In this document: positions 51,225 through 64,000 of the stretch, piece after piece
Layout: each line of letters starts with the position of its first letter
Position numbering within the stretch: position 1 is the stretch's first letter
Source of the DNA: Opitutales bacterium
Lineage (GTDB): Bacteria; Verrucomicrobiota; Verrucomicrobiia; Opitutales; PNEW01
NCBI GenBank assembly: GCA_965197745.1
Contig: CBDANS010000005.1
Location: 256,001 to 320,000 of the forward strand
Direction: 5' to 3'
DNA length: 64,000 bases
Translations under genes and position numbers: made by a program
The notes under the pieces: generated by a model
Told to the model about the DNA's origin: nothing
The model's database searches: none
Seen by the model: only the letters and a program-made list of their open reading frames with translations

Positions 51225-53432
51225 ATGCTGCAACCAGCTTTTGGTTATCGTCCATTTCCCGTAATTTTTGTAATTATGGTGACTCTCCATTTTGGCGTTG
51301 TGGGAGGAGAGCAGCCCGATGAAGAGATTGTTGAGATAGATGAATTCATTGTCTACGCTCAGAAAAAACCGGAAAAGATTCAAGAGGTGCCAATTTCTTT
51401 AAGCGCTTATGCCACTGATGATATCGAAGATTGGGCGATACGTACGAGTAGAGATGTAATTTCCCAAACACCAAATCTACAGTATAATAAAACCGGTTTT
51501 ACCTCGTCCCACCCGCTCATCTTTTCACGGGGTGTCGGGATAAATGATTTTAATGTGAACTCTAGCGGCGCGGTTGGTGTTTATTCCGATGATATATATT
51601 TAAATTCACCATCGGGGCAGGTTATACAACTCTTCGACATTGAACGTATTGAAGTTTTGCGCGGTCCGCAGGGAACATTGTATGGGAGAAATACCACCGG
51701 TGGCGCCATTAATTTCATTTCCAAAAAACCAACGGGAGAAAAGGAAGGCTATGCCCAGGTCACTTATGGCAGCTATGACCAAATAGGTATTGAAGCCGCC
51801 TTTGAAGTGCCTGTGGTCAAGGATAAATCAGCATTACGCGTGTCTTTTGTCTCTAATAATCGCGATGGTTATACCTAAAATCTTTTAAATGGTAATGATG
51901 AAAATGAAATTGAAGTTTGGGCCGCAAGAGCTCTGTTGAGTATTTCGCCGAGCGATAGTTTAGATATTCTTGTTAATGTTCATGGGTGGCGCAATAGTGC
52001 CGGTTCCGGTCAATATCAGAGTGGGGGATTGATTGATGGGGCTGATGCTTTAGGTTATATCGAAAGTGCGGATCCTCTTACCGGTTCATACAGCCGTGAT
52101 GATCAGGAGAATATCGATTCCTTTGGCGCATCTGTAACTGCAAATTGGGAATCTCAGAATTTTGTATTGTCTTCGATAACAGGATATGAACAAACGGAAA
52201 AATTAATATTACAGGAAACAGATGCGAGTCCTAACCAGTTAATTGAAATCGATTGGTTCAGTGATGTCTCGCAGTTTTCCCAGGAAATTCGATTGACTCC
52301 CAATAGTGCTGATCGTCTCGAATGGATCACTGGCCTCTACTTTTTTGACGAAGATTTGTTTTCCAAAAATCAGTTCGATATATTAAGATCGTTGCGTGCT
52401 CTCGGTGTTCCTTTTAACCTCGAAAGTCCAACGGACGGGCCCTTCCTCGTAGAGCAGGATTACGATCAAGGGACTACCAGTTTTGCCGCTTTTGGTCAAT
52501 TTACCTACAATTTAAACCGTAAATTATCATTAACAGTTGGAGGGCGCTACACCTATGAGGAGCGAACTTTCAACCTTAATTCGGCTTTTGTTGAACCGGA
52601 ATTTCGCATCCCTTTAATTGATGCTTTCAGGAGTAAAATTGATGATAATGTATTTTCTGGAAAAATTGGTATCACTTATAAACCGAGTGACAGCTATATG
52701 TTTTATGCGAGTTTCAGCCGCGGATTTAAAAGCGGTGGTTTTAATGGGGGGGCCCTTTTTTTTCCTGGAGAAGCTACGGCCGTAGAACCTGAGTTTTTAA
52801 ATTCGTTTGAAGTAGGATTTAAGTCTTCCTTCTACGAAAACCGGCTGCATTTTAATACCACGGCTTTTTATTATGATTACGATAACTTACAGGTATTTAA
52901 TCTGAGGAATTTTGGTGATGTCCCCAGACAGGTATTGCAGAATGCTTCAGATGCCCGAATCTACGGGCTCGATGCCGAATTAGAGGCACAACCCGTGGAG
53001 AGATTATGGACCCGGTTGGGATTAGGGCTTCTTAATACAGAATATAAAGATTTTATTGTCGGTGATGGCACCGACTATTCTGGTAATGAACTCGTTTCAG
53101 CACCGGATGTGACATTTAACGGAGCTGTAGGCTACTCCTTCCCTCTCGGTAGTCTTGGTTCCATTACGACACGCATGGATTTTAATTTTAATGACAATAT
53201 GTTTTTTGATTCGTCGAATACGAGTCGTATTGGAGCAGATAGTTATTGGTTGTTGAATGCCAGAGTAGCATTCGAAACAAAGAATGGACGATACGCGTTG
53301 GCTTTCGTTGGTAAAAATCTAACCGACACCGTATATTTAACTGAAGTCTTTGATTTATCCGACTTTGGATTTGATCAAAAAGTCATGGGGGCCCCTAGAA
53401 CATTCGCTGTTGAGCTGACCATGCGGTTTTAA
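51225..53432 (+). pseudogene. TonB-dependent receptor, interrupted by in-frame TAA at 51876-51878
   Basis: TonB-box-like EFIVYAQK, plug motif IERIEVLRGPQGTLYGRNTTGGAI, barrel motif SRGFKSGGFN and C-terminal Phe. The two ORF-track pieces are in one frame joined by RDGYT*NLLNGNDENEIEVWAARALL. Confidence 0.85.
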
Positions 53433-53495
53433 ATTATACAGTCAGGGTTGATTTACTAAGAATCAATTCCCGACTAGGGTTGGCTCAATTCGGTC

Positions 53496-53538
53496 ACAGC
53501 ACACTTCTCTATGTATTATAAGGTGTGCTGTTTTTTTT
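53496..53538 (+). terminator. Intrinsic terminator after the receptor gene
   Basis: 9-bp stem ACAGCACAC/GTGTGCTGT followed by a T run. Confidence 0.7.
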
Positions 53539-53609
53539 CATATCTGTATTGCGGGATTGTGCCGATAAAAACTTTGCTTGCAGAATTGGCTACCGTGTAT
53601 ATGAATTCT

Positions 53610-53658
53610 AAATGTAAAGCACGCTCATCTGTGTGGTTTACATTTTTTTTACTATAAT
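53610..53658 (+). promoter_or_regulatory. 15-bp imperfect inverted repeat plus TATAAT upstream of the PKS
   Basis: AAATGTAAAGCACGC-tcatct-GTGTGGTTTACATTT (2 mismatches); TATAAT at 53653-53658. Confidence 0.45.
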
Positions 53659-53809
53659 TATTATAGCTGAAAAGAGCGGCGGGCAAGGGATCCACAATTA
53701 TTGCTTAAGATGTTGATATTCAATTGGAAAATAAATATCTGCACCAGCAGGAGGCGCCGGGTATAGATAGCCGATTGAGCACGAATTTGAGAAGATAGAA
53801 AATTGATTG

Positions 53810-56800
53810 ATGAGTAAGTATGAGAAAGAACCCATTGCCATAATTGGCATTGGTTGTCGATTTCCCGGGCGCGCTTCGACCCCAAGAGCTTTATGGGAAT
53901 TATTATGCACAGGGAAAGATGCTATTGGGGAAGTGCCATCAGATCGCTGGGATATGAGGCGATTTTACGATGCTGATCCTGATAAGCCCGGTGAAACCTA
54001 TGCTAAGGAGGGGGGATTTCTGAGTGAGAAAATCGACCAGTTTGATCCTTTATTTTTTGGCATTTCTCCCCGCGAAGCTGAAAGTATGGATCCTCAGCAG
54101 CGTTTACTTTTAGAGGTAACCTGGGAAGCACTGGAAGATGCAGGCATCATCGCAGAGGCGCTGGCAGGGACAAATACCGGGGTCTTTATAGGGGGTTTCT
54201 GTTTGGATAATAATCTACTCAAACTTGGATCGTTAAATCGACAATTGATAGATTCACATACCGGAACAAGTTCCACAATGACAATCCTTTCGAATCGGAT
54301 CTCTTATACCTTTGATCTTAAAGGTCCCAGTGTTACAATGGATACGGCCTGTTCCTCCTCTCTGGTAGCCACCCACTACGCATGTCAAAGTATATGGAAT
54401 GATGAATCTGAATTGGCCTTTGCCGGTGGCGTAAATGTCATGTTAAGGCCAGAAAATCCCATAGTAATGAGTAAAGGCAGGTTTTTATTATCCACCCATT
54501 CTCGCTGCATGGCATTCGACGAGCGGGCTGAAGGTTATGCCAGAGGAGAAGGCGCAGGTATCATCATGCTTAAACCCTTATCGCATGCCCTGAGAGATAA
54601 AGATCCAGTATATGCTCTCATTCGCATGTCGGGTGTTAATCAGGATGGGCAAACATCGGGGATTTCCTTACCGAATGCCACATCGCAGGAAAATTTGATT
54701 AAAGATGTCTATCGACGGGCTGACATTTTACCCAGCGAAATACAGTATGTGGAAGCTCATGGGACTGGAACTCAGGCGGGAGATATTGCTGAAATGAAAG
54801 CTTTGCAGGCAGTTCTTTCGGAGGGACGGTCGTCTGATAATAAATGTCTGGTGGGTTCTGTGAAAACTAATATTGGTCATTTAGAAGCCGCAGCGGGTAT
54901 TGCAGGTCTGATCAAAGCTGCATTGACACTTAAACATAAAGCAGTTCCTCCCCACCTTTATTTCGAGAAACCAAACCCCAAGATTCCTTTTGGTGAAATT
55001 TGTCTACGCGTTCCCACCCAACTTGAATCCTGGCCGTCAAGTAATGGTACCGCTTACGCCGCGGTCAATTCATTTGGCTATGGGGGAACGAATGCTCATG
55101 TCCTTCTCCAGGAACCTTCGAGTGAAGAGAAATCTAAACACAACTCGGATAATGGTCTCAATAAGCCGCTTTTAGTACCTTTGTCTGCGCGTAGTGAAAA
55201 TGCCTTAAAGGATCTTGCCGGGAAATGTGCATTTTACCTGTCGGCACACGCTACTGAATCTTCAATCGCTGATATTGCTTATACCGCCAGTCAGCGGCGA
55301 AGCCATCACTCTCAACGGCTGTCGATCTTAACCGATAGCTGGGAAGAGCTACATGAAAAATTGCTCTCCTTTTCGATGGGTGATTTAAGCGAGGGTGTAT
55401 CAACAGGACGAGCGTTACACGGGGATGACCAGAAACTGGTGTTTGTTTTTTCCGGTATGGGGCCCCAGTGGTGGGCAATGGGGAGAGAATTGATGGAGAG
55501 AGAACCGGTGTTTTCAAATGCCATAGATGAGTGTGATTCTGTGTTTCAAAAATATGCTGGATGGTCGATAAAAGAAAATTTAAGTGCAGATGAACAATCA
55601 TCGCGCATCGGAGAAACGCAGATAGCGTAACCGCTAAATTTTACAATCCAGGTCGCGTTGACTGCGCTATGGGAATCATGGGGTATAAAACCCCACGCAG
55701 TGATAGGCCACAGCGTAGGTGAAGTTAGCGCCGCATTCATTTCGGGCGCCCTAACGCTCGAAGATGCGATCAAAGTAAGTTATCACCGCAGTCGACTGCA
55801 GCAATCTCTCACTGGTGGGGGTTCCATGCTTGCGGTGGGATTATCTGAAAATGAAATTTCCGAGGTAATTGATTCCTATGAACAGGTCTCGATTGCGGCC
55901 ATTAACAGCCCAACGGCAATTACCCTTACAGGTATGACGGATGAATTAAAAAGAATTGCTTTTTCGCTTGAGGGAAAAAATATATTCAATCGTTTTCTCA
56001 AGGTAGATGTAGCTTATCATAGTTACCAGATGGAGGCTATTAAGGATGAATTGCGGGATTGCCTTGGGGAAATTAAATTCTGTGAAAATCACCTGCCCTT
56101 ATACTCGACAGTTGAAGGTGCATATATCGCGGCGAGTGAGTGGGATTCAGATTATTGGTGGAAGAATGTACGTTACCCCGTTAAGTTCGCTCCAGCGCTG
56201 AATGCGATGATCAAAGATGGGTATAGGAATTTTCTGGAGATTGGTGCTCATCCCGTGCTCGGAACTTTCATCAAGGAATGCATCCTGGAAAATGATAGTC
56301 AGAGCAATGTCATACCCTCTCTTCATCGTAATACCCCTGAATTATTCCAAATGTTAGATTCGCTGGGGCATTTATATACGCTGGGATTTTCTGTCGACTG
56401 GCAGAAGATATTGCCTGAAACGGGGCGTTTCATTTCGCTGCCCACTTATCCCTGGCAAAGAGAGCGGTATTGGAAAGAGTCGAATAAGTCGAAAGAAGAC
56501 CGGTTGGGCCAGCCAGGACATATTTTTTTAAACATCGATCTCGGATCACCTGAGCCGATTTGGGAAGTAGAGATAAATGAACATTTCTTCCCTTATCTTA
56601 AACACCACCGTGTTGAAAACAAAGTGGTATTTCCGGGTGCCGCCTATGTTGAAGCGGGACTGGCGATTCATGAGAAACTCTTCGATAAACAATCGGCTAT
56701 TTTAGAAGACATAGAATTCAATTCCATGTTGGTGGCTGAAGAGAAAAAGATACAGAAACTCTGTTTTAATCATCATCCTCAAACAAAGACTTACTCCGTT

Positions 56801-59800
56801 CACAGTCGCCTCAATGAAGACGGTGCAGATTGGAAATTGCATGCTACAGGCAAGATCTTATCAGGGCAAAGTGAAGATGAGAAACCTGCTATTAGTTTGA
56901 AGAAGATTCAAAGTCTTTGTCGGGAAGAAATGAGCAACGAGGATTTTTATGATATGCTTGAAAAGAGAGGGCTTAGTTATGGAGATTATTTCCGCAGAGT
57001 GAAACAAATATGGAAAGGCTCTGACGATTTCCTCATAAAAACAGAATCCCATCAGGACTTATCAGAAAATAACGATAACTATCTACTCCATCCCACAATA
57101 CTTGATGCCTCTTTCCAAACGATGTTGATCATGATCGGAGGTAAAAGTCCATTTGTCCCCGTATCTATTGAGCGATTAAAATTTTATCAAACTCCCGGTC
57201 GAAGGTTCTGGTCCCATGGAACTATTACCCGTCGCACTAACAATATTTTAGAAGCGGATATTAACTTTTTAGACGATGAGGGTAATATCCTTGTAGAGAT
57301 CGAGAAAGTTAAATGTCAGGCTATTTCTGCGGAGCGTAATGAGATGAGGAGGCACCAGTATTATGCAATTAATTGGGTGCAAGAAGCTGAAATGATTGAT
57401 CCTGCCCCAATAAATAATAAGAGGTGGCTTATCTTTGGCGATCGAGGAGAAATCGAAAATTCACTCCTCAACCATTTCGATTCTCAGGAGATATTTTACA
57501 CCCTGATTACAAGAGGGCGGGAATATCGGAAAATAAAAAACAATCATTACGTCATACGAGAAAATATGGCGACAGACCGAAAACAGCTTATTGCCGATTT
57601 AGGTGAAGAACAATATGATATAATTCTATATCTTTGGGGCATGGGTGAAAGTGTTGTCGATAATGATTTACATTTTAACAAAGTTATTGGCCAATGCATG
57701 CCATTAATAAATTTAGTAGAAGCATTAACGCAGGGGAATGCTGATCAAGAGGTAATATTAGGAATCGTAACGCGTGATTCACAATGTGTAATTAAGGGCG
57801 ATTCTGGAACTGGTTTATATGCAGCGCCTCTCTGGAGCTTAGGACAATTAATAGAAAATGAAGTGCCGATTATAAAATCCAAGCTTATTGATTTTGATAA
57901 GGCATATGAAGTTAGCGATGTTGATTTACTCGTGGCAGAGATAATTTCCAAGACACAAGATCGAAATGTCGCCTATCGTTTGGGTAAGAGATTCGTCCAA
58001 AAGCTGAATCACGCTGATATAGATAATTATCCTCAAAATAAAGAGACGAAAATTATCTCAACTCAATATCCCGTTTCCCTTTCATTAAAAGTTCCAGGTC
58101 AAATAGACAGCCTCGCATTCGAAGAATGTTCACGTCTGGCCCCTTCAACGGGCGAAGTGGAAATTCAGGTAGAAGCAACAGCTCTAAATTTCAAGGACCT
58201 CTTAAAAATATATGGACATATAAACGCTAAAGCAATCGAAGGCACTTTTTTTGGTGAAACTTTAGGTATGGAAATTGCAGGAAAAATTGTGAGTGTGGGT
58301 GAGGGTGTTGATAATTTTAAAGTGGGAGATGAAGTTGTAACCCCCATCTCTGGTAGTTTTCGCTCTTATGCAACGGTCTCAGACACTTACCTCATGCCTC
58401 TACCAGAAAAATTAAGAAAGGAAGAAGCGCTGAATTATATAGGGTATTTTGCCGCTTATTACGGGCTTATCGATATAGCACAATTGAAAAAGGGAGAAAA
58501 AGTTTTGATTCATAGTGCAACAGGCGGTCTGGGTTTGGCAGCGGTACAAATTGCACAATGGGTTGGCGCGGAAATATTTGCCACTGCCGGGAATGATGAG
58601 AAACGAAAATATTTAAAGGATTTAGGGATAAATAATGTGATAGATTCACGTTCCCTCGACTTCACTGAGAAAATAAGAAAAATTACCGAGAACAAGGGTG
58701 TTGACGTTATTCTTAACGCATTGTCTGGAGATAGCTTTTATCAAAGTTTTTCCCTTCTTGCTCCCTATGGTAGATTTATAGAGGTCGGGAAAAAGGACAT
58801 TGCCGACAATAATGCATTACTTCTTAGCGCCTTTAATCGTAATCTTACCTTTGCTTCAGTAGATGTAGACCGCATGCTTAAAGAGCGGCCGGAAATAATC
58901 ACAAGGCTTTCGAAGGACATAAATCGAGGTTTTGAAGAAGGTTATTTTTGGGCATTACCAACCAAAATATTTCCCGCTTCTGAAGTGGTTGAAGCATTCC
59001 GGTATATGTCGCAGAGCAAGCATATCGGTAAGATTGTCGTAACCATGCAAGACCAGGAAGTCCCCGCCTTAACGATAGCTCATAAAAGAGAAATTCTTCG
59101 AAAAGACGGGACTTATTTGGTCACCGGCGGAACTCGTGGATTCGGACTGGAAGTGGCTAAATGGCTCTCGAAGAAAGGCGTGGATCAACTAGCTCTTATT
59201 AGTCGTAGCGGTGCAGTAACGGAAGAAGCTAAAGCAGCTATTACTGAAATAGAGATGGAGGGGACTTCGGTGAAAGTAGCTGATGTTGATATCACCGAAG
59301 GGTTGCAGGTAAAACAACTCTTCGAAGATATTAATTCAGGAATGCCCCCCTTACGGGGCATTTTCCATAGCGCGATGGTGCTCGATGATGGGTATTTAAA
59401 GGATCTTGATGAGCATCGCCTTCGCAAGGTTATGGCCCCTAAAGTAGCCGGTATTTTAAATCTACACGAGAACACAAAAAAATTAAATTTGGATTACTTT
59501 GTGTCCTTCTCTTCAGTTTCCTCGCTCATTGGTAATACCGGTCAGGGAAATTATGTCGCAGCTAATGCTTTTCTCGATGCTTTCGCACACTACCGTCGAG
59601 CCAGAAACTTACCTGCTTTAACTATAAATTGGGGGGTTATGGAGGAGACTGGGGTCGTTGCTCGTAACGCTGATATTGCAAGACATTTAAAAAATATTGG
59701 AATCCGCGGAATTTCTACGGACCAGGCTTTAGAGGCGCTCGAAAAATTGCTTGATGAAAATCCGATTCAAATGGGGGTTTTCAACATAGATTGGGAACAG

Positions 59801-60208
59801 TGGGCAATGGCTTATCCTCACGGTGCGGACTCCTCTCGTTATAGTGCATTGATAGAAAGTGATCTTGCCGGTTATAATTCTCAAAAAACTGAGAAATATA
59901 AATGTATGGTGGAGGAACTTTCCAATCTTGGTAGTGGTGAAAGGCAAAAACGCTTTGAAACACTTATTTCTGAGCAGTTGGTGACTGTTATGCATATCCC
60001 CGCCGATAAAATTGATCATCATCAAAGTTTCAAAAACCTGGGCATAGATTCACTAATGACGCTAGAAATAAGACTGGCTTTTAAATCGAACCTTGGAATT
60101 GAGATCTCCTCAGTTGATCTATTAACCGAATCTTCAATCTCACAACTGGCAACTCAGTTGCTGGATAAAATAGTTGCCATACCGGTAATGGATGAGGCGC
60201 TTATTTGA
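53810..60208 (+). pseudogene. Single-module highly reducing type I PKS (KS-AT-DH-ER-KR-ACP, no TE), interrupted by in-frame TAA at 55628-55630
   Basis: KS DTACSS/HGTGT/GHLE; AT GHSVG and VAYHS; DH HRVENKVVFP and HPTILD; ER LIHSATGGLG; KR TGGTRGFG, LDD and GNYVAAN; ACP LGIDSL. Both ORF pieces share a frame across ETQIA*PLNFTIQVAL. Confidence 0.88.
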
Positions 60209-60343
60209 TTTGTGAACGCTGAACCATGTGATTCAAAAAAGCATGCATCTTTAATCTCTTATAATCGAATGAAACCTTACAGACCTATACTTGTGCTTGA
60301 TGAAATTAAAACCGTGTATCTCATTTCAGCCTTTTATAATATA

Positions 60344-61747
60344 GTGGAAACAACTCTTTCTGGAATTGACAGTATAGTCGTTTTTCAAAACAGCCAGGGA
60401 CTAGCCAGTCGTGGCACATTAGTCCACATTACTCGAACTAAAGTCGTATTTGAAGTCTACAATCCTTATTCAATCGTCCAATTAAGCGAAGTCCTCGGAG
60501 GAGTAAAAGTGCTTCGAGGAGAAAGAACAATTTATAATGGTAAAGCTGTCGTTAATAACATCGTACCCACAGGATTAATGGTGATTATATCTGCCTCATT
60601 AATAGATGCCTGGTCTGACCTCTCTGGATTGCGAACGGGGGAAGGCCTAAAAGAGGAAACCCAACGCTTTGTTAATGATTGGGAGGATTCACACGTGCTG
60701 AGGCCTTCTTATCAACTGATTGTTGGGACAATTAGAAATTTTCTCGAAGAACTGAGTTTATGGCTTGATGAGGCAGAGACCGGGTTACTCGAAATGGGAG
60801 ATACCGATAGCTCTGATTCACAGAGACAGGAGTTTTACGAGGAAGTCGAAAATCCTCTCAGGCCGATTATTGCATCATTATATGAAAAATTTGAAGAGGA
60901 GGCTATGCGCGTTCCCTATGAAGATGTAATGACACATAAATCGTTCGCGCGAAGAGAACTGCACCCCTTAACCATGTGTTCCCCCTTTGTTCATCGCACC
61001 TACACTAAACCACTGGGCTATGCTGGAGATTATGAAATGGTGAATATGATGCTAGGGGAATCGGAAACCCCCGATCTGAATACCTATGCAAGAATAGTTC
61101 ATGCTTACCATATTCATGCGTCAGCACCGGAGGCTCATCGCAATCGAATAAAAATGCTGGAGAATCGCCTGAAAGCTGAAGCGATTAGAGTAAACGAAGA
61201 AGGACGCCCCTTTACCGTGCTTAATGTCGCTTGTGGTCCAGCGGTGGAACTTCAGAGATTTATTCGGAATGAAGAAATTTCCAACCACGCTGTATTTCAT
61301 TTACTGGATTTCAACAGAGAAACGATCGATTATGTGGAAGAAAAAATATCAGGAGTCATTCGTGAAAGCTCTCATAAGCCGATGGTTAAATTCATACATA
61401 AGTCGATCGATACTCTGCTCAAAGAAGTGTATGAAAAAGAAAATGGTAATTCGCCCACCTATGATTTGGTTTATTGTGCCGGCCTTTTTGACTATTTTAC
61501 TGATCAGACCTGTAAGCAGCTGGTCCCCTTATTTTTTGATTGGGTCAGAGTTGGAGGGCTTTTGACCGTTACTAATGTTCATCCTGATAATCCGGACCGC
61601 CATCAAATGGAACATTTACTTGAGTGGCATCTTAATTACCGCGATGAATATGAGATGAAGGCCCTTGCTCCAGCAAATACTAATGGTAATGTGATTACGG
61701 ATGATACTAAGATAAATGTTTTTCTTGATGTTCGTAAAATGGAATAA
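60344..61747 (+). CDS. phcB: PhcB-like SAM-dependent methyltransferase (fatty acid methyl ester signal synthase family)
   Basis: FQNSQG..RGT...EVYNPYSIVQLSEVL N-domain, SPFVHRTYTKPLGYAGDYEMVN, SAM motif VLNVACGP and YDLVYCAGLFDY, recognised from memory as Ralstonia PhcB-like. GTG at 60344 is preferred over 60212. Confidence 0.82.
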   Translation: METTLSGIDSIVVFQNSQGLASRGTLVHITRTKVVFEVYNPYSIVQLSEVLGGVKVLRGERTIYNGKAVVNNIVPTGLMVIISASLIDAWSDLSGLRTGEGLKEETQRFVNDWEDSHVLRPSYQLIVGTIRNFLEELSLWLDEAETGLLEMGDTDSSDSQRQEFYEEVENPLRPIIASLYEKFEEEAMRVPYEDVMTHKSFARRELHPLTMCSPFVHRTYTKPLGYAGDYEMVNMMLGESETPDLNTYARIVHAYHIHASAPEAHRNRIKMLENRLKAEAIRVNEEGRPFTVLNVACGPAVELQRFIRNEEISNHAVFHLLDFNRETIDYVEEKISGVIRESSHKPMVKFIHKSIDTLLKEVYEKENGNSPTYDLVYCAGLFDYFTDQTCKQLVPLFFDWVRVGGLLTVTNVHPDNPDRHQMEHLLEWHLNYRDEYEMKALAPANTNGNVITDDTKINVFLDVRKME

Positions 61748-61750
61748 ACC

Positions 61751-64000
61751 GTGAAAAATATTATTACCGATTCCTTTCTTCACGAAGCGTACCAAAAAAC
61801 CGATACTGACTTACGGTTACGTCATACTAAAGCGGGATGTGTCATATCCTATTTTTGTATGCCCGCTGGAGCGGCCTTAGACTATTATGTTTATAATGCT
61901 TTTTTATGGCCATTTTTTAAAATCAGGCTGCTTATAAGTTTTTTGGCATTTATTATTTTCCTCCTCCTCTATACCTCAACAGGGCGCAATTATATTAAAG
62001 TTTTTGGTATTATTTGGGTCTTAATGTTGAACCTTTCTTTTTGTTGGATGATTTATTTAACCGAGGGATCGGTGTCGCCATATTACGCAGGTATCAGTTT
62101 AATTATTCTCGGTGTTGCCGTGCTTTTACCATGGTCTGTTGGCGAAACTTTATTGGTATGTGTTGTTTCTATTGGTATGTATCTATTAACCTGCCTTATT
62201 CATAATTATACAGTCCCCGGGCCTTTTAATTATGACATCCTGTTCAATAATGTTTACTTTTTGATTCTTACTAGCTTGATATGTACCACTGCGAGTCATT
62301 TTTATTCGAATAATCGATTCCAGGAATTTCTCCTTCGTCACGAATTGGATATTCGGAATAAGAAACTGGAAGAATTAGACCAGTTGAAGTCTCAATTCTT
62401 CGCCAATGTCAGTCATGAATTACGGACACCGCTTACCCTCATACTTTCACCAATAGAAGATTTATTGCGCCGGAGTGAGAAATTACCGGGTAAAGTTCAT
62501 GAATCTTTACTCGTTTCACATAGAAACGCACTGCGCCTCCTTAAGCTAATTAACGAATTACTTGATATCATGCGTTTGGAGGAAAAGGGATTCACGCTCT
62601 CCAAAGAATCCATAAATTTGAATGTATTTATTCCGGGGATAGTAGATTCAGTCAGGCATTTAAGTGAGGTTAAAAACTTAAGGTTAGTATCTGATGTAGA
62701 AGAGGACTCGGTCCTGGTCGAAGCCGATCCCGATCGAATGGAAAAAGTGCTCCTTAATCTTCTCAGTAATGCCGTAAAATTTACTCCAAGCGGCGGAAAA
62801 ATAATTCTCCGAATACGATCAAAAAATGAACGGGCTCTAATCGAAGTGGAAGATGACGGGATCGGTATTGCGGATGAAGATTTACCCCATATTTTTAAGC
62901 GATTTCATCAAGTTGATGGGGCGACAACAAGAAATTTTCAAGGAGTAGGTATTGGACTGGCCCTCGCTCGCGATCTCGTAGAAAAGCACGAAGGTAGTCT
63001 TACCGCTAAAAGTGAACCGGGGAAGGGGACAACATTTACGATTGATCTCCCTCTAATAGAGACTGCAGAAGAAATTGAAATTTCTAAAAATAGCGAATTA
63101 CCCGGGGACGAGCCTTTCGCGCAGGTTTTTCAATCCGCTAATCGCGTTTTGGAAAAACACAGTACCGCAGATAATAGCATGTTGCCAGCTGTAGGCAGTG
63201 GAGATTTCACTATTCTTGTCGTTGATGATGAACCCGATATGCTTCGCTATCTGGTCACAACCCTCGCTGAAGAATATCGTGTGCTGCAAGCGATCAATGG
63301 GGAACAGGCCATAAAACTGACGCAGACCCATAATCCTGACTTGCTTCTCCTTGACTGGATGTTACCCGGTCGTGATGGATTGGCGGTATGCCGAACTTTG
63401 CGGGAGAGCAAAATGAATGACTTAAAAATTATTTTACTTACTTCGCGCATCGATGAAGCTTCAAAAATAAAAGCTTTGGAGGAGGGAGCGGACGATTTTC
63501 TGACTAAGCCATTTAGTACAATTGAAGTCAGAACGCGAATTGCCAATCAGTTGCGCATTGCCACCTTACAGAAAGACCAACGCCAACGTAATATTGAATT
63601 GGAGGATACCTTAAACCAATTGAAAAATACTGAATCTCAATTGGTTCAAAGTGAAAAAATGAATGCCATCGGCAGTCTTGCCGCCGGGCTGTTACATGAA
63701 ATAAATAATCCGCTTAATTACACCTTAACGGCGTTGCAGGTGGGACGAGAATCCGTTGCAGAAGAAAATAATGATTTGATTGAGACTATGGATGATATCG
63801 ATGAAGGAATGAAGCGGATTAGAGATATAGTCTCGGATTTACGTGATTTCGCCTATCCCAGTAGCATAAGCAAACAACAAAGATTTGAATTGAATGGAGC
63901 TTTGGATACCGCGGTCCGTCTTTTATCGCATGAGTTTAATGGGCTTTCCATAACAAGGGAGATTAGTGATGAATGTAATATTTATGCGTCCAAGACTCAG
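61751..64000 (+). CDS. Membrane hybrid histidine kinase (TM sensor-HisKA-HATPase-REC-second HisKA), PhcS/PhcR-like; truncated by the window edge and absent from the ORF track
   Basis: Open frame of 750 codons from a GTG 3 nt after the phcB stop. Multi-TM sensor (LDYYVY, SPYYAGISL, LLPW), FANVSHELRTPL, NLLSNAVKFT, DDGIG, GVGIGL, REC (VVDDEPD, LLLDWMLPG, DDFLTKPF), then QLVQSEKMNAIGSLAAGLLHEINNPL. Confidence 0.9.
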   Translation, partial: MKNIITDSFLHEAYQKTDTDLRLRHTKAGCVISYFCMPAGAALDYYVYNAFLWPFFKIRLLISFLAFIIFLLLYTSTGRNYIKVFGIIWVLMLNLSFCWMIYLTEGSVSPYYAGISLIILGVAVLLPWSVGETLLVCVVSIGMYLLTCLIHNYTVPGPFNYDILFNNVYFLILTSLICTTASHFYSNNRFQEFLLRHELDIRNKKLEELDQLKSQFFANVSHELRTPLTLILSPIEDLLRRSEKLPGKVHESLLVSHRNALRLLKLINELLDIMRLEEKGFTLSKESINLNVFIPGIVDSVRHLSEVKNLRLVSDVEEDSVLVEADPDRMEKVLLNLLSNAVKFTPSGGKIILRIRSKNERALIEVEDDGIGIADEDLPHIFKRFHQVDGATTRNFQGVGIGLALARDLVEKHEGSLTAKSEPGKGTTFTIDLPLIETAEEIEISKNSELPGDEPFAQVFQSANRVLEKHSTADNSMLPAVGSGDFTILVVDDEPDMLRYLVTTLAEEYRVLQAINGEQAIKLTQTHNPDLLLLDWMLPGRDGLAVCRTLRESKMNDLKIILLTSRIDEASKIKALEEGADDFLTKPFSTIEVRTRIANQLRIATLQKDQRQRNIELEDTLNQLKNTESQLVQSEKMNAIGSLAAGLLHEINNPLNYTLTALQVGRESVAEENNDLIETMDDIDEGMKRIRDIVSDLRDFAYPSSISKQQRFELNGALDTAVRLLSHEFNGLSITREISDECNIYASKTQ

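Follow-up and report, generated by a model that had tools for sequence, protein, structure and literature searches.

Analysis of a 64,000-nucleotide stretch of Opitutales (Verrucomicrobiota) DNA (the window) revealed at its downstream end a cassette that we read, with somewhat more confidence than doubt, as a variant of the Phc-type signal-and-sensor cassette fed by a polyketide synthase (PKS), in which a synthase resembling mycocerosic acid synthase (MAS) would supply the acyl chain. Judged by gene content and order, the conserved unit is five genes long: the PKS, a PhcB-like methyltransferase, a kinase fusing PhcS-like and PhcR-like parts, a PhcQ-like gene, and a further PhcR-like gene. The first three lie in that order on the + strand of the window (Table 1). 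We took a Phc-type signal to be a 3-hydroxy fatty acid methyl ester that is secreted and sensed in a density-dependent manner. In the proposed pathway, the PKS would use its own ACP to build or extend an acyl chain, and the methyltransferase would convert this chain to a methyl ester. The hydrophobic ester would then leave the cell and be perceived by the adjacent kinase through its membrane-embedded sensor, and the kinase would pass the signal on, via the receiver proteins, to an output.

Table 1. Features of the PKS-methyltransferase-kinase cassette in window coordinates
Feature	Coordinates	Strand	Basis and remarks
Type I PKS gene, KS-AT-DH-ER-KR-ACP	53810..60208	+	Pfam domains; one in-frame stop
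KS domain	53828..54964	+	PF00109/PF02801, residues 8-386; Cys-His-His catalytic triad present
AT domain	55440..56368	+	PF00698, match split by stop; GHSVGE and VAYHS motifs
In-frame TAA in AT domain	55628..55630	+	Relatives have a conserved Gln codon here, CAA or CAG
DH domain	56546..57337	+	PF21089/PF14765; His and Asp motifs
ER domain	58148..59041	+	PF08240/PF00107/PF13602
KR domain	59108..59644	+	PF08659; LDD motif in 16/16 aligned sequences
ACP domain	59969..60154	+	PF00550; DSL serine
PhcB-family SAM-dependent methyltransferase, 467 aa	60344..61747	+	Homologues ~465 aa; frame open from 60212
N-terminal six-stranded PilZ-like beta-barrel	60371..60601	+	Structure models; Foldseek
Helical middle region	60641..61198	+	Secondary structure; family-invariant R-x3-KPLGYAGD and HRNR
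Class I (Rossmann) methyltransferase core	61211..61735	+	Weak PF13649 match; fold matches
Hybrid sensor kinase, 859 aa	61751..64000, on to window-equivalent 64330	+	Pfam; GTG start
Membrane-embedded sensor region	61823..62320	+	About six hydrophobic helices, short loops; by eye from translation

The PKS gene is 2132 codons long. As the original prediction held, it starts at the ATG at 53810 and encodes a single KS-AT-DH-ER-KR-ACP synthase without a release domain, broken by one in-frame TAA. A Pfam search detected no thioesterase, reductase, or condensation domain in the PKS, and its C terminus runs ~30 residues beyond the ACP helix. Nothing in the cassette codes for a release enzyme, and the sole match to the thioesterase family PF00975 in the genome is unlinked; release from the ACP could be effected by the non-Rossmann parts of the methyltransferase or by an unlinked hydrolase. 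Catalytic motifs were kept in 16/16 aligned orthologues (overall identity, 40 to 66%), with the exception of the ER NADPH motif, which was degenerate in 3. The VAYHS specificity motif of the AT domain is common to the whole PKS family in the ortholog alignment and, we presume, matches neither of the two textbook AT specificity motifs. The KR appears to be of the B type, given its LDD motif, and would yield a (3R)-hydroxyacyl intermediate; the known Phc signal is (R)-configured, as far as the available text of PMC9102662 goes. Since DH and ER domains are also present, the product of the PKS need not be a 3-hydroxy acid.

Among solved structures, the best homologue of the PKS was MAS (9d2z; E = 2.7e-179), aligned end to end, with residues 1 to 1514 after the stop aligning with MAS residues 595 to 2100. 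The best NCBIfam rows were Pks2 and PKS_plus_SDR. The NF041183 cutoff of 2400 bits was not reached by the part of the PKS after the stop (749 bits) or by the part before it (518 bits). These scores are far under the equivalog cutoff, and the PKS is therefore better described as a homologue than as an equivalog. MAS and MAS-like mycobacterial iterative PKSs likewise show the KS-AT-DH-ER-KR-ACP order without a thioesterase. However, the partner gene of the window PKS encodes a methyltransferase, in contrast to the PapA5-type acyltransferase that we take to be the partner of MAS.

All 120 listed homologues of the methyltransferase, each ~465 residues long, cover only ~91% of the open frame from 60212 to 61747, and the gene of the nearest relative begins at a GTG equivalent to 60344. 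This GTG is therefore most likely the true start, leaving a gap of 135 nt after the PKS stop. Homology to PhcB, claimed in the original prediction, proved to extend over the full length: the enzyme was 41% identical over 456 aa (E = 1e-123) to the PhcB-type protein P0236 of Cupriavidus necator and 43% identical over 97% of its length to the product of a Paraburkholderia plasmid gene, which heads a phcBSRQ-like operon where a kinase and two receiver genes follow. These Cupriavidus and Paraburkholderia proteins served as stand-ins for Ralstonia PhcB in the comparison. Many homologues carry a KEGG-style phcB description in their source records. In the tree, the window methyltransferase shares a family with the Burkholderiales PhcB clade, yet falls outside that clade.

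In the structure model of the methyltransferase (pLDDT, 87.8), the Rossmann core matched the folds of natural-product O- and C-methyltransferases. The top Foldseek rows for the N-terminal beta-barrel were mostly PilZ proteins (MrkH, PP4397, BcsA, YcgR, and Alg44; TMq, 0.57 to 0.67), at E values of only 2.5e-3 to 0.09, none as low as 0.001, and 10 to 84% of the members of related ESM Atlas clusters carry the PilZ family PF07238. PF07238 itself gave no Pfam match in the methyltransferase even at E values up to 10. PilZ domains bind c-di-GMP through RxxxR and (D/N)xSxxG motifs; the barrel sequence, as we read it, lacks both an Arg ahead of the first strand and a (D/N)xSxxG motif.

The kinase gene begins at the GTG at 61751, 3 nt past the methyltransferase stop (61745 to 61747), and extends 330 nt beyond the window end. 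Its product is ordered as a six-helix membrane sensor, a HisKA-HATPase core, a receiver, and a second HisKA-HATPase core. The sensor was 33% identical over 196 aa (E = 2e-29) to a Paraburkholderia PhcS-like protein, and the receiver and second kinase core were PhcR-like, in agreement with the PhcS/R-like hybrid kinase originally proposed at this spacing. The downstream check that had been suggested for phcQ-like or regulator genes identified two genes just past the window. One encodes a 416-aa receiver protein (PhcQ-like) with a faint, degenerate HATPase-like tail (E = 0.06), residues 12 to 166 of which were 46% identical to the receiver protein (344 aa) encoded in the Paraburkholderia operon; the other encodes a separate 421-aa receiver-HATPase protein (PhcR-like). 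The locus contained neither a LysR (PhcA-like) regulator nor any other DNA-binding output protein.

A survey for recurrent PKS-phcB adjacency, likewise suggested at the outset, found it in other genomes, which clearly contradicts the refuting condition, set in the original prediction, that no other genome has it. Of 40 relatives of the order, only 4 yielded a methyltransferase match. The PKS lay directly upstream of it on the same strand in all three relatives with a strong match; the fourth, with a weak 19%-identity match only, was left out of this count. Across public loci, the PKS was directly upstream in 19 of 80, absent in 52, and undecidable in 8, with 1 locus too short. Among 400 genomes sampled from the phylum, 14 others carried the methyltransferase, and in 5 of these the PKS was linked to it. 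Given that the order recurs in the three strong-match relatives and the 19 public loci, these comparisons indicate that the gene arrangement is beyond chance. The PKS-linked loci were all labeled Verrucomicrobiota bar one bin; labels in the clade comprised Opitutales/Opitutaceae, Puniceicoccaceae, Chthoniobacterales/Terrimicrobiaceae, and, for the one bin, Methylococcales. The gap between the two genes was 9 to 178 nt in these loci, and the PKS was a single uninterrupted open reading frame (~2036 to 2134 aa) in 16 of the 19. PKS-linked methyltransferases formed one clade (20/20 rows; SH-aLRT, 99) with one change on the tree, and the PKS tree recovered the main split within that clade. The kinase adjoined the methyltransferase downstream in all 79 public loci with room for it, the alignment spanning the membrane domain in 76. 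In the PKS-less loci, the genes upstream of the methyltransferase were heterogeneous. FadL/TodX outer-membrane channels, which are associated with hydrophobic compounds, adjoined it in 3 PKS-less verrucomicrobial loci.

Because most family members are without a PKS, the methyltransferase does not need one. The PKS could thus be a conserved neighbor or regulated output that makes a separate lipid, its genes being co-transcribed with or controlled by the system, while the methyltransferase and kinase act on an ordinary fatty acid chain, as is assumed for Ralstonia. The PKS-less pairs, which occur in Planctomycetota, in several classes of Pseudomonadota, and in other phyla, are consistent with this alternative, as are the heterogeneous upstream genes and the DH and ER domains, which suggest a fully reduced chain over a 3-hydroxy acid. 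However, we consider it unlikely: throughout one clade the PKS immediately precedes the methyltransferase, the trees point to co-inheritance of the two genes, and the PKS has no release domain of its own. When a PKS of this kind lies immediately next to a tailoring enzyme, the two usually belong to one pathway. None of the runs on record as RNA holds the stretch, and a promoter and terminator scan gave no signal above that of shuffled sequence.

The methyl ester, or some other methylated lipid, might instead serve within the cell rather than between cells, as an internal or envelope-bound cue through which the kinase follows the state of the cell's own lipids. The sensor lies entirely within the membrane, the PilZ-like barrel of the methyltransferase may point to internal regulation, and the locus is without a DNA-binding output protein, all of which would fit such a role. 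In contrast, the only characterized family members in the available text of PMC8578825 and PMC2842291 are the synthase of a diffusible signal and the sensor for it. Moreover, identity between the two closest genomes was only 44% for the sensor, against 82% for the methyltransferase, and such rapid divergence of the sensor relative to the remaining cassette is more typically seen in signal-receptor specificity pairs. The FadL/TodX channels also count against a purely internal role, which we regard as quite improbable.

The TAA in the AT domain is a real nonsense codon. Gln occupies this position in 15/15 PKS orthologues and also in an alignment with 3 relatives. T at 55628 is found in contigs of runs X1, X3, and X4, and the TAA is present in contigs from two studies. 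The strain of run X6, which differs from the window by 20 listed single-letter differences and two small deletions over 4.5 kb, has C at this position and therefore an intact CAA. The CAA-to-TAA change truncates the PKS after the KS and 63 AT residues. Taking the truncation together with the intact codon in a near-identical strain, the window strain is probably a non-producer: it probably cannot make the PKS-derived signal, and its methyltransferase and sensor genes remain intact. A second nonsense codon, also present in contigs from two studies, was observed in a TonB-dependent receptor gene 2 kb upstream.

These two nonsense codons could also indicate that the whole locus is decaying and inactive in this strain, the TAA being the first step of cassette loss. 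The sparse occurrence of the methyltransferase among relatives of the order, which suggests that the cassette is often gained and lost, would agree with such decay. We consider it very unlikely, however, since no stop interrupts the reading frame of the methyltransferase, of the 859-aa kinase, or of either receiver gene, and the near-identical strain keeps CAA, implying that the PKS lesion is very recent. Furthermore, natural quorum-sensing systems have commonly lost signal production while retaining the sensor.

A literature search found no description of a PKS-Phc cassette or of a Phc-type system in Verrucomicrobiota. Extending the PKS-fed reading, we tentatively propose, as a possible rather than a probable history, that one mainly verrucomicrobial clade captured a MAS-like PKS to provide a Phc-type methyl-ester autoinducer with an acyl chain of its own, with CAA and TAA as producer and signal-null alleles. 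If this were true, the ester would represent a new chemical class of quorum signal, natural populations would hold both PKS alleles, and the window strain would listen without bearing the cost of the signal. Fast sensor divergence within the clade would fit signal-receptor specificity groups.

Among other lipid-signaling systems, CqsA/CqsS of Vibrio and LqsA/LqsS of Legionella mediate alpha-hydroxyketone signaling. There, a lipid-like autoinducer is made from an acyl thioester by a dedicated enzyme and sensed within the membrane by an adjacent six-helix membrane hybrid kinase. The window cassette similarly places a putative lipid-signal enzyme beside such a kinase; however, the CqsA and LqsA synthases are PLP-dependent acyltransferases, and those systems involve neither a PKS nor a methyl ester.

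The closest likeness is to the Phc system itself, for which the available text of PMC8578825 lists phcB, phcS, phcR, which combines a receiver with a kinase, and phcQ, which has a receiver alone. PMC2842291 credits C. necator JMP134 with a complete Phc system, its products being 56 to 75% identical to those of R. solanacearum. The window cassette shares with this system a full-length homologue of the signal methyltransferase, a homologous membrane domain in the sensor kinase directly downstream, a receiver-plus-kinase protein, a receiver protein without a DNA-binding domain, and the same gene order. In contrast to the Phc system, the window locus yielded no phcA-like regulator, its host belongs to the Verrucomicrobiota, and its methyltransferase falls in a separate clade at ~41 to 43% identity. 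The PhcS-like and PhcR-like parts are fused in the 859-aa protein and accompanied by a further PhcR-like gene, and the cassette is headed by the 2132-codon PKS gene.

The gene order in the window was confirmed from sequence as first predicted: a PKS lacking a TE domain is followed by a PhcB-family methyltransferase, with a membrane hybrid kinase at the close spacing originally claimed (see the table). Mycocerosic acid synthase (MAS) was the best solved homologue of the PKS, aligning end-to-end (residues 1-1514 after the internal stop codon versus MAS 595-2100, E 2.7e-179), and the best NCBIfam rows, Pks2 and PKS_plus_SDR, both scored far under their cut-offs. In 16 of the 19 other PKS-linked loci, the PKS was an uninterrupted open reading frame of ∼2036-2134 aa ending 9-178 nt from the methyltransferase gene; in the remaining three it was truncated by the end of the contig (L008), in fragments (L009), or in split form (L030; L numbers denote public loci with a methyltransferase homologue).

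Features of the locus and of related loci, with identity to the nearest relative (genome G001, locus L004)
Feature	Sequence	Position	Strand	Description	Identity
TonB-dependent receptor gene (Plug and barrel)	window	51225-53432			
In-frame TAA in receptor gene	window	51876-51878			
PKS	window	53810 (ATG)-60208	+	single reading frame: KS, AT, DH, ER, KR, ACP, no further domain (Pfam)	62-75%
In-frame TAA in PKS AT domain	window	55628-55630	+	sole interruption of PKS frame	
Methyltransferase	window	60344-61747	+	467 aa, probable GTG start; 511-codon frame open after PKS	82%
Hybrid kinase	window	starts 61751, continues past window	+	859 aa; three bases after methyltransferase stop	
Membrane sensor of kinase	window	61823-62320			44%, versus L004 11867-12364
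Cytoplasmic part of kinase	window				73%
Split kinase	L004	11867-14448		166-aa membrane-sensor ORF and 656-aa ORF in other frame	
FadL/TodX channel	L050	8146-9345			
FadL/TodX channel	L053	4887-6170			
FadL/TodX channel	L082	8461-9867			

Across 16 aligned PKS sequences (40-66% identity), the KS Cys and both His residues, the AT GHSVGE motif, the DH His and Asp, the KR glycine motif, Tyr and LDD, and the ACP DSL motif were all kept. All 16 also shared the AT motif VAYHS, which matches neither textbook AT specificity motif. LDD is a mark of B-type ketoreductases, which would yield (3R)-hydroxyacyl chains. The known Phc signal is reported to have this configuration (PMC9102662). The NADPH-binding glycine motif of the ER domain was degenerate in three of the 16 orthologues (L012, L016, and L019), with other catalytic motifs intact, so the chain may be unsaturated in some lineages. 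The genome encodes one Sfp-sized PPTase candidate and one thioesterase-family match, the latter unlinked to the locus. A second PKS-type KS match, also unlinked, was seen outside the window in a 4035-codon open frame (G000:C7:244353, in the source genome).

The TAA within the AT domain falls where three relatives have CAA or CAG and where all 15 aligned orthologues have the Gln of a QP motif. Contigs from sequencing runs X1, X3, and X4 (two studies, one run possibly being the window's source) matched the window exactly, including T at 55628. Relative to the window, run X6, from a third study, had 20 listed substitutions and two short deletions over 4.5 kb, and its C at 55628 restores CAA. Sequencing error was rejected because the TAA was present in contigs from two studies at depths of 6-14; the window may itself derive from one of these runs. 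Decoding of TAA as a residue was likewise rejected: 121 long same-frame ORF pairs were split by a single stop genome-wide (TAA 62, TGA 43, TAG 16), and since these counts track ordinary stop-codon use in the genome (TAA/TGA/TAG, 889/648/328), they give no sign of recoding. Taking together the Gln codons of relatives, the run contigs, and the stop-codon counts, the PKS nonsense allele in this strain is recent and real. The truncated product, which retains KS and 63 residues of AT, would probably be inactive whether or not translation restarts at 55658. The TonB-dependent receptor gene just upstream is likewise interrupted by a single in-frame TAA, with T at 51876 in the window, X1, X3, and X4 and A in X6, giving AAA (Lys); two nonsense alleles thus lie 3.7 kb apart within one strain lineage. 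The pair of producer (CAA) and null (TAA) PKS alleles offers a natural test of signal cheating.

For the methyltransferase, the most likely start is the GTG at the position tabulated, because all 120 listed homologues are ∼465 residues long, covering just 91% of the 511-codon frame, and the gene of the nearest relative begins at the equivalent GTG. The family is large and well conserved, and some sources label its members [quoted passage not shown] Pfam returned Methyltransf_25 alone, and weakly (E 0.0012); no NCBIfam model matched, and a sequence search of solved structures returned none. The predicted homology to PhcB held over the full length: a Cupriavidus necator protein shared 41% identity across 456 residues (E 1e-123), and a Paraburkholderia graminis plasmid gene was 43% identical over 97% of the length of the window protein. 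On the plasmid, the methyltransferase gene heads a block that continues with a kinase gene (445 aa) and two receiver-protein genes (134 aa, then 344 aa). In the methyltransferase tree, the Cupriavidus and Paraburkholderia proteins fell in a separate, well-supported Burkholderiales group that does not include the window protein.

The structural model of the methyltransferase was confident (pLDDT 87.8), with a six-stranded barrel at residues 10-86, a long stretch of helices at 100-285, and a Rossmann core at 290-464. Its fold matches were natural-product O- and C-methyltransferases, PKS C-methyltransferase domains included, with an uncharacterised Bordetella protein at the top. Modelled alone (pLDDT 84.5), the barrel was nearest to PilZ domains (TMq 0.57-0.67), but at E values of 2.5e-3 and weaker. 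PilZ is carried by 10-84% of the members of related ESM Atlas clusters; the Pfam PilZ model did not match the barrel, and no c-di-GMP binding motifs were found in the methyltransferase sequence. In Ralstonia PhcB, the substitution R22C, which lies in this N-terminal part and outside the methyltransferase domain, is reported to lower signal output (PMC6989110); R23 of the window protein aligns with R22 of the Cupriavidus protein. Invariant charged motifs of the helical region are candidate binders of the substrate carboxylate. A predicted complex of methyltransferase and ACP scored 0.00 without controls and counts neither for nor against binding.

The kinase has the PhcS/PhcR-like character originally proposed: about six hydrophobic helices are followed by HisKA-HATPase, a receiver, and a second HisKA-HATPase, and its membrane domain was 33% identical over 196 aa to a Paraburkholderia PhcS-like protein (E 2e-29). 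Beyond it, outside the window, lie PhcQ-like and PhcR-like genes; the first encodes a receiver protein of 416 aa whose tail is faintly kinase-like, and the second a receiver-HATPase protein of 421 aa. Downstream DAO, PhyH, AstE-like, and SDR genes were left out of the cassette because their conservation was limited to the closest relative. The fast divergence of the membrane sensor relative to the other parts of the locus (see the table) is consistent with diversification of signal specificity, without proving it. In the nearest relative, an Opitutales MAG by label, the kinase is split either by a frameshift or by an assembly indel, with the PKS and methyltransferase intact. A tree of kinase membrane domains (FastTree, 79 rows) was poorly resolved: the PKS-linked rows need three changes, one of which is forced by well-supported branches. 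By identity, the row most similar to the window's sensor was a Phycisphaeraceae sequence (50%).

A scan with one genome per species detected at least 578 methyltransferase loci, and a representative search gave 397 clusters at 50% identity (E up to 1e-30). The best 80 of the at least 578 loci were fetched for a neighbourhood survey; their labels covered Verrucomicrobiota, Planctomycetota, Myxococcota, Thermodesulfobacteriota, Kiritimatiellota, Candidatus Binatota, and Alpha-, Beta-, and Gammaproteobacteria. Among these best 80, a kinase of the window type followed the methyltransferase in all 79 loci with room for one (the 80th ends at the methyltransferase), and in 51 a single alignment spanned the whole fused architecture. 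The PKS recurred: 19 of the 80 have a PKS of the window type immediately ahead of the methyltransferase gene and in the same orientation. Of the other 61 loci, 52 lack it, 8 were undecidable with <3 kb upstream, and 1 was too short. The 19 loci were labelled Opitutales/Opitutaceae, Puniceicoccaceae, Chthoniobacterales, or Terrimicrobiaceae, with one Methylococcales exception. Among 40 relatives of the order, four had a methyltransferase match, and the PKS stood in front in all three strong ones; the fourth, weak at 19% identity, lay outside the neighbourhood count. Of 400 genomes sampled evenly across the phylum, 14 carried the methyltransferase, five with the PKS (51-55% identity) and nine without (34-43%). 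Upstream genes of PKS-less loci were highly varied. In three PKS-less verrucomicrobial loci, the methyltransferase gene adjoins one for an outer-membrane channel of the FadL/TodX type, which serves hydrophobic compounds; in one of these loci (L050), a KS-AT-like match also lies ∼6 kb downstream on the other strand.

When 86 methyltransferases were placed in a maximum-likelihood tree, all 20 PKS-linked rows fell together in one group (SH-aLRT 99) requiring a single change. A tree of 16 PKS proteins showed the same main split, 5 versus 11 rows, with support of 100. Given this single group and shared split, the PKS and methyltransferase genes have, as judged from their trees, travelled together. 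The Methylococcales exception (L046, labelled uncultured Methylococcales) carries a complete PKS-linked cassette yet is nested in the Opitutales group of both trees, which points to misbinning or horizontal transfer.

Regarding expression, none of the runs listed as containing this DNA is recorded as an RNA run, and promoter and terminator counts over 53300-62000 were not above those of shuffled sequence. The original interpretation survived all tests run. By homology, the cassette is a Phc-type module of synthase and sensor to which a dedicated MAS-like PKS is joined. For the full chain, in which the PKS would feed the methyltransferase and the product would act between cells, we lean slightly in favor. 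The PKS-linked clade offers an experimental handle, with the acyl chain probably encoded beside the methyltransferase and the adjacent kinase a candidate receptor. Co-expressing the PKS, the methyltransferase, and a PPTase should thus show what the signal is chemically, and would also show how a methyltransferase partner may off-load a PKS that lacks a release domain.

In the literature consulted, accounts of Phc signalling are limited to Ralstonia and its near relatives, in which it governs the virulence of plant pathogens; methyltransferase-sensor pairs of this family reach far beyond these. Our literature search found no description of a Phc-type system in Verrucomicrobiota or Planctomycetota, of a PKS linked to phcB, or of this cassette. 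C. necator JMP134 is reported to possess all components of a Phc system, with products 56-75% identical to those of R. solanacearum, and a Cupriavidus strain to produce a form of 3-OH PAME (PMC2842291). The Phc operon is described as consisting of phcB, phcS, phcR (receiver and kinase domain), and phcQ (receiver only) (PMC8578825). Based on this published operon and on the methyltransferase, sensor, and operon matches to Cupriavidus and Paraburkholderia, which served as stand-ins for the Ralstonia proteins, all four parts of the Phc system have counterparts at the window locus, with the PhcS-like and PhcR-like parts fused.
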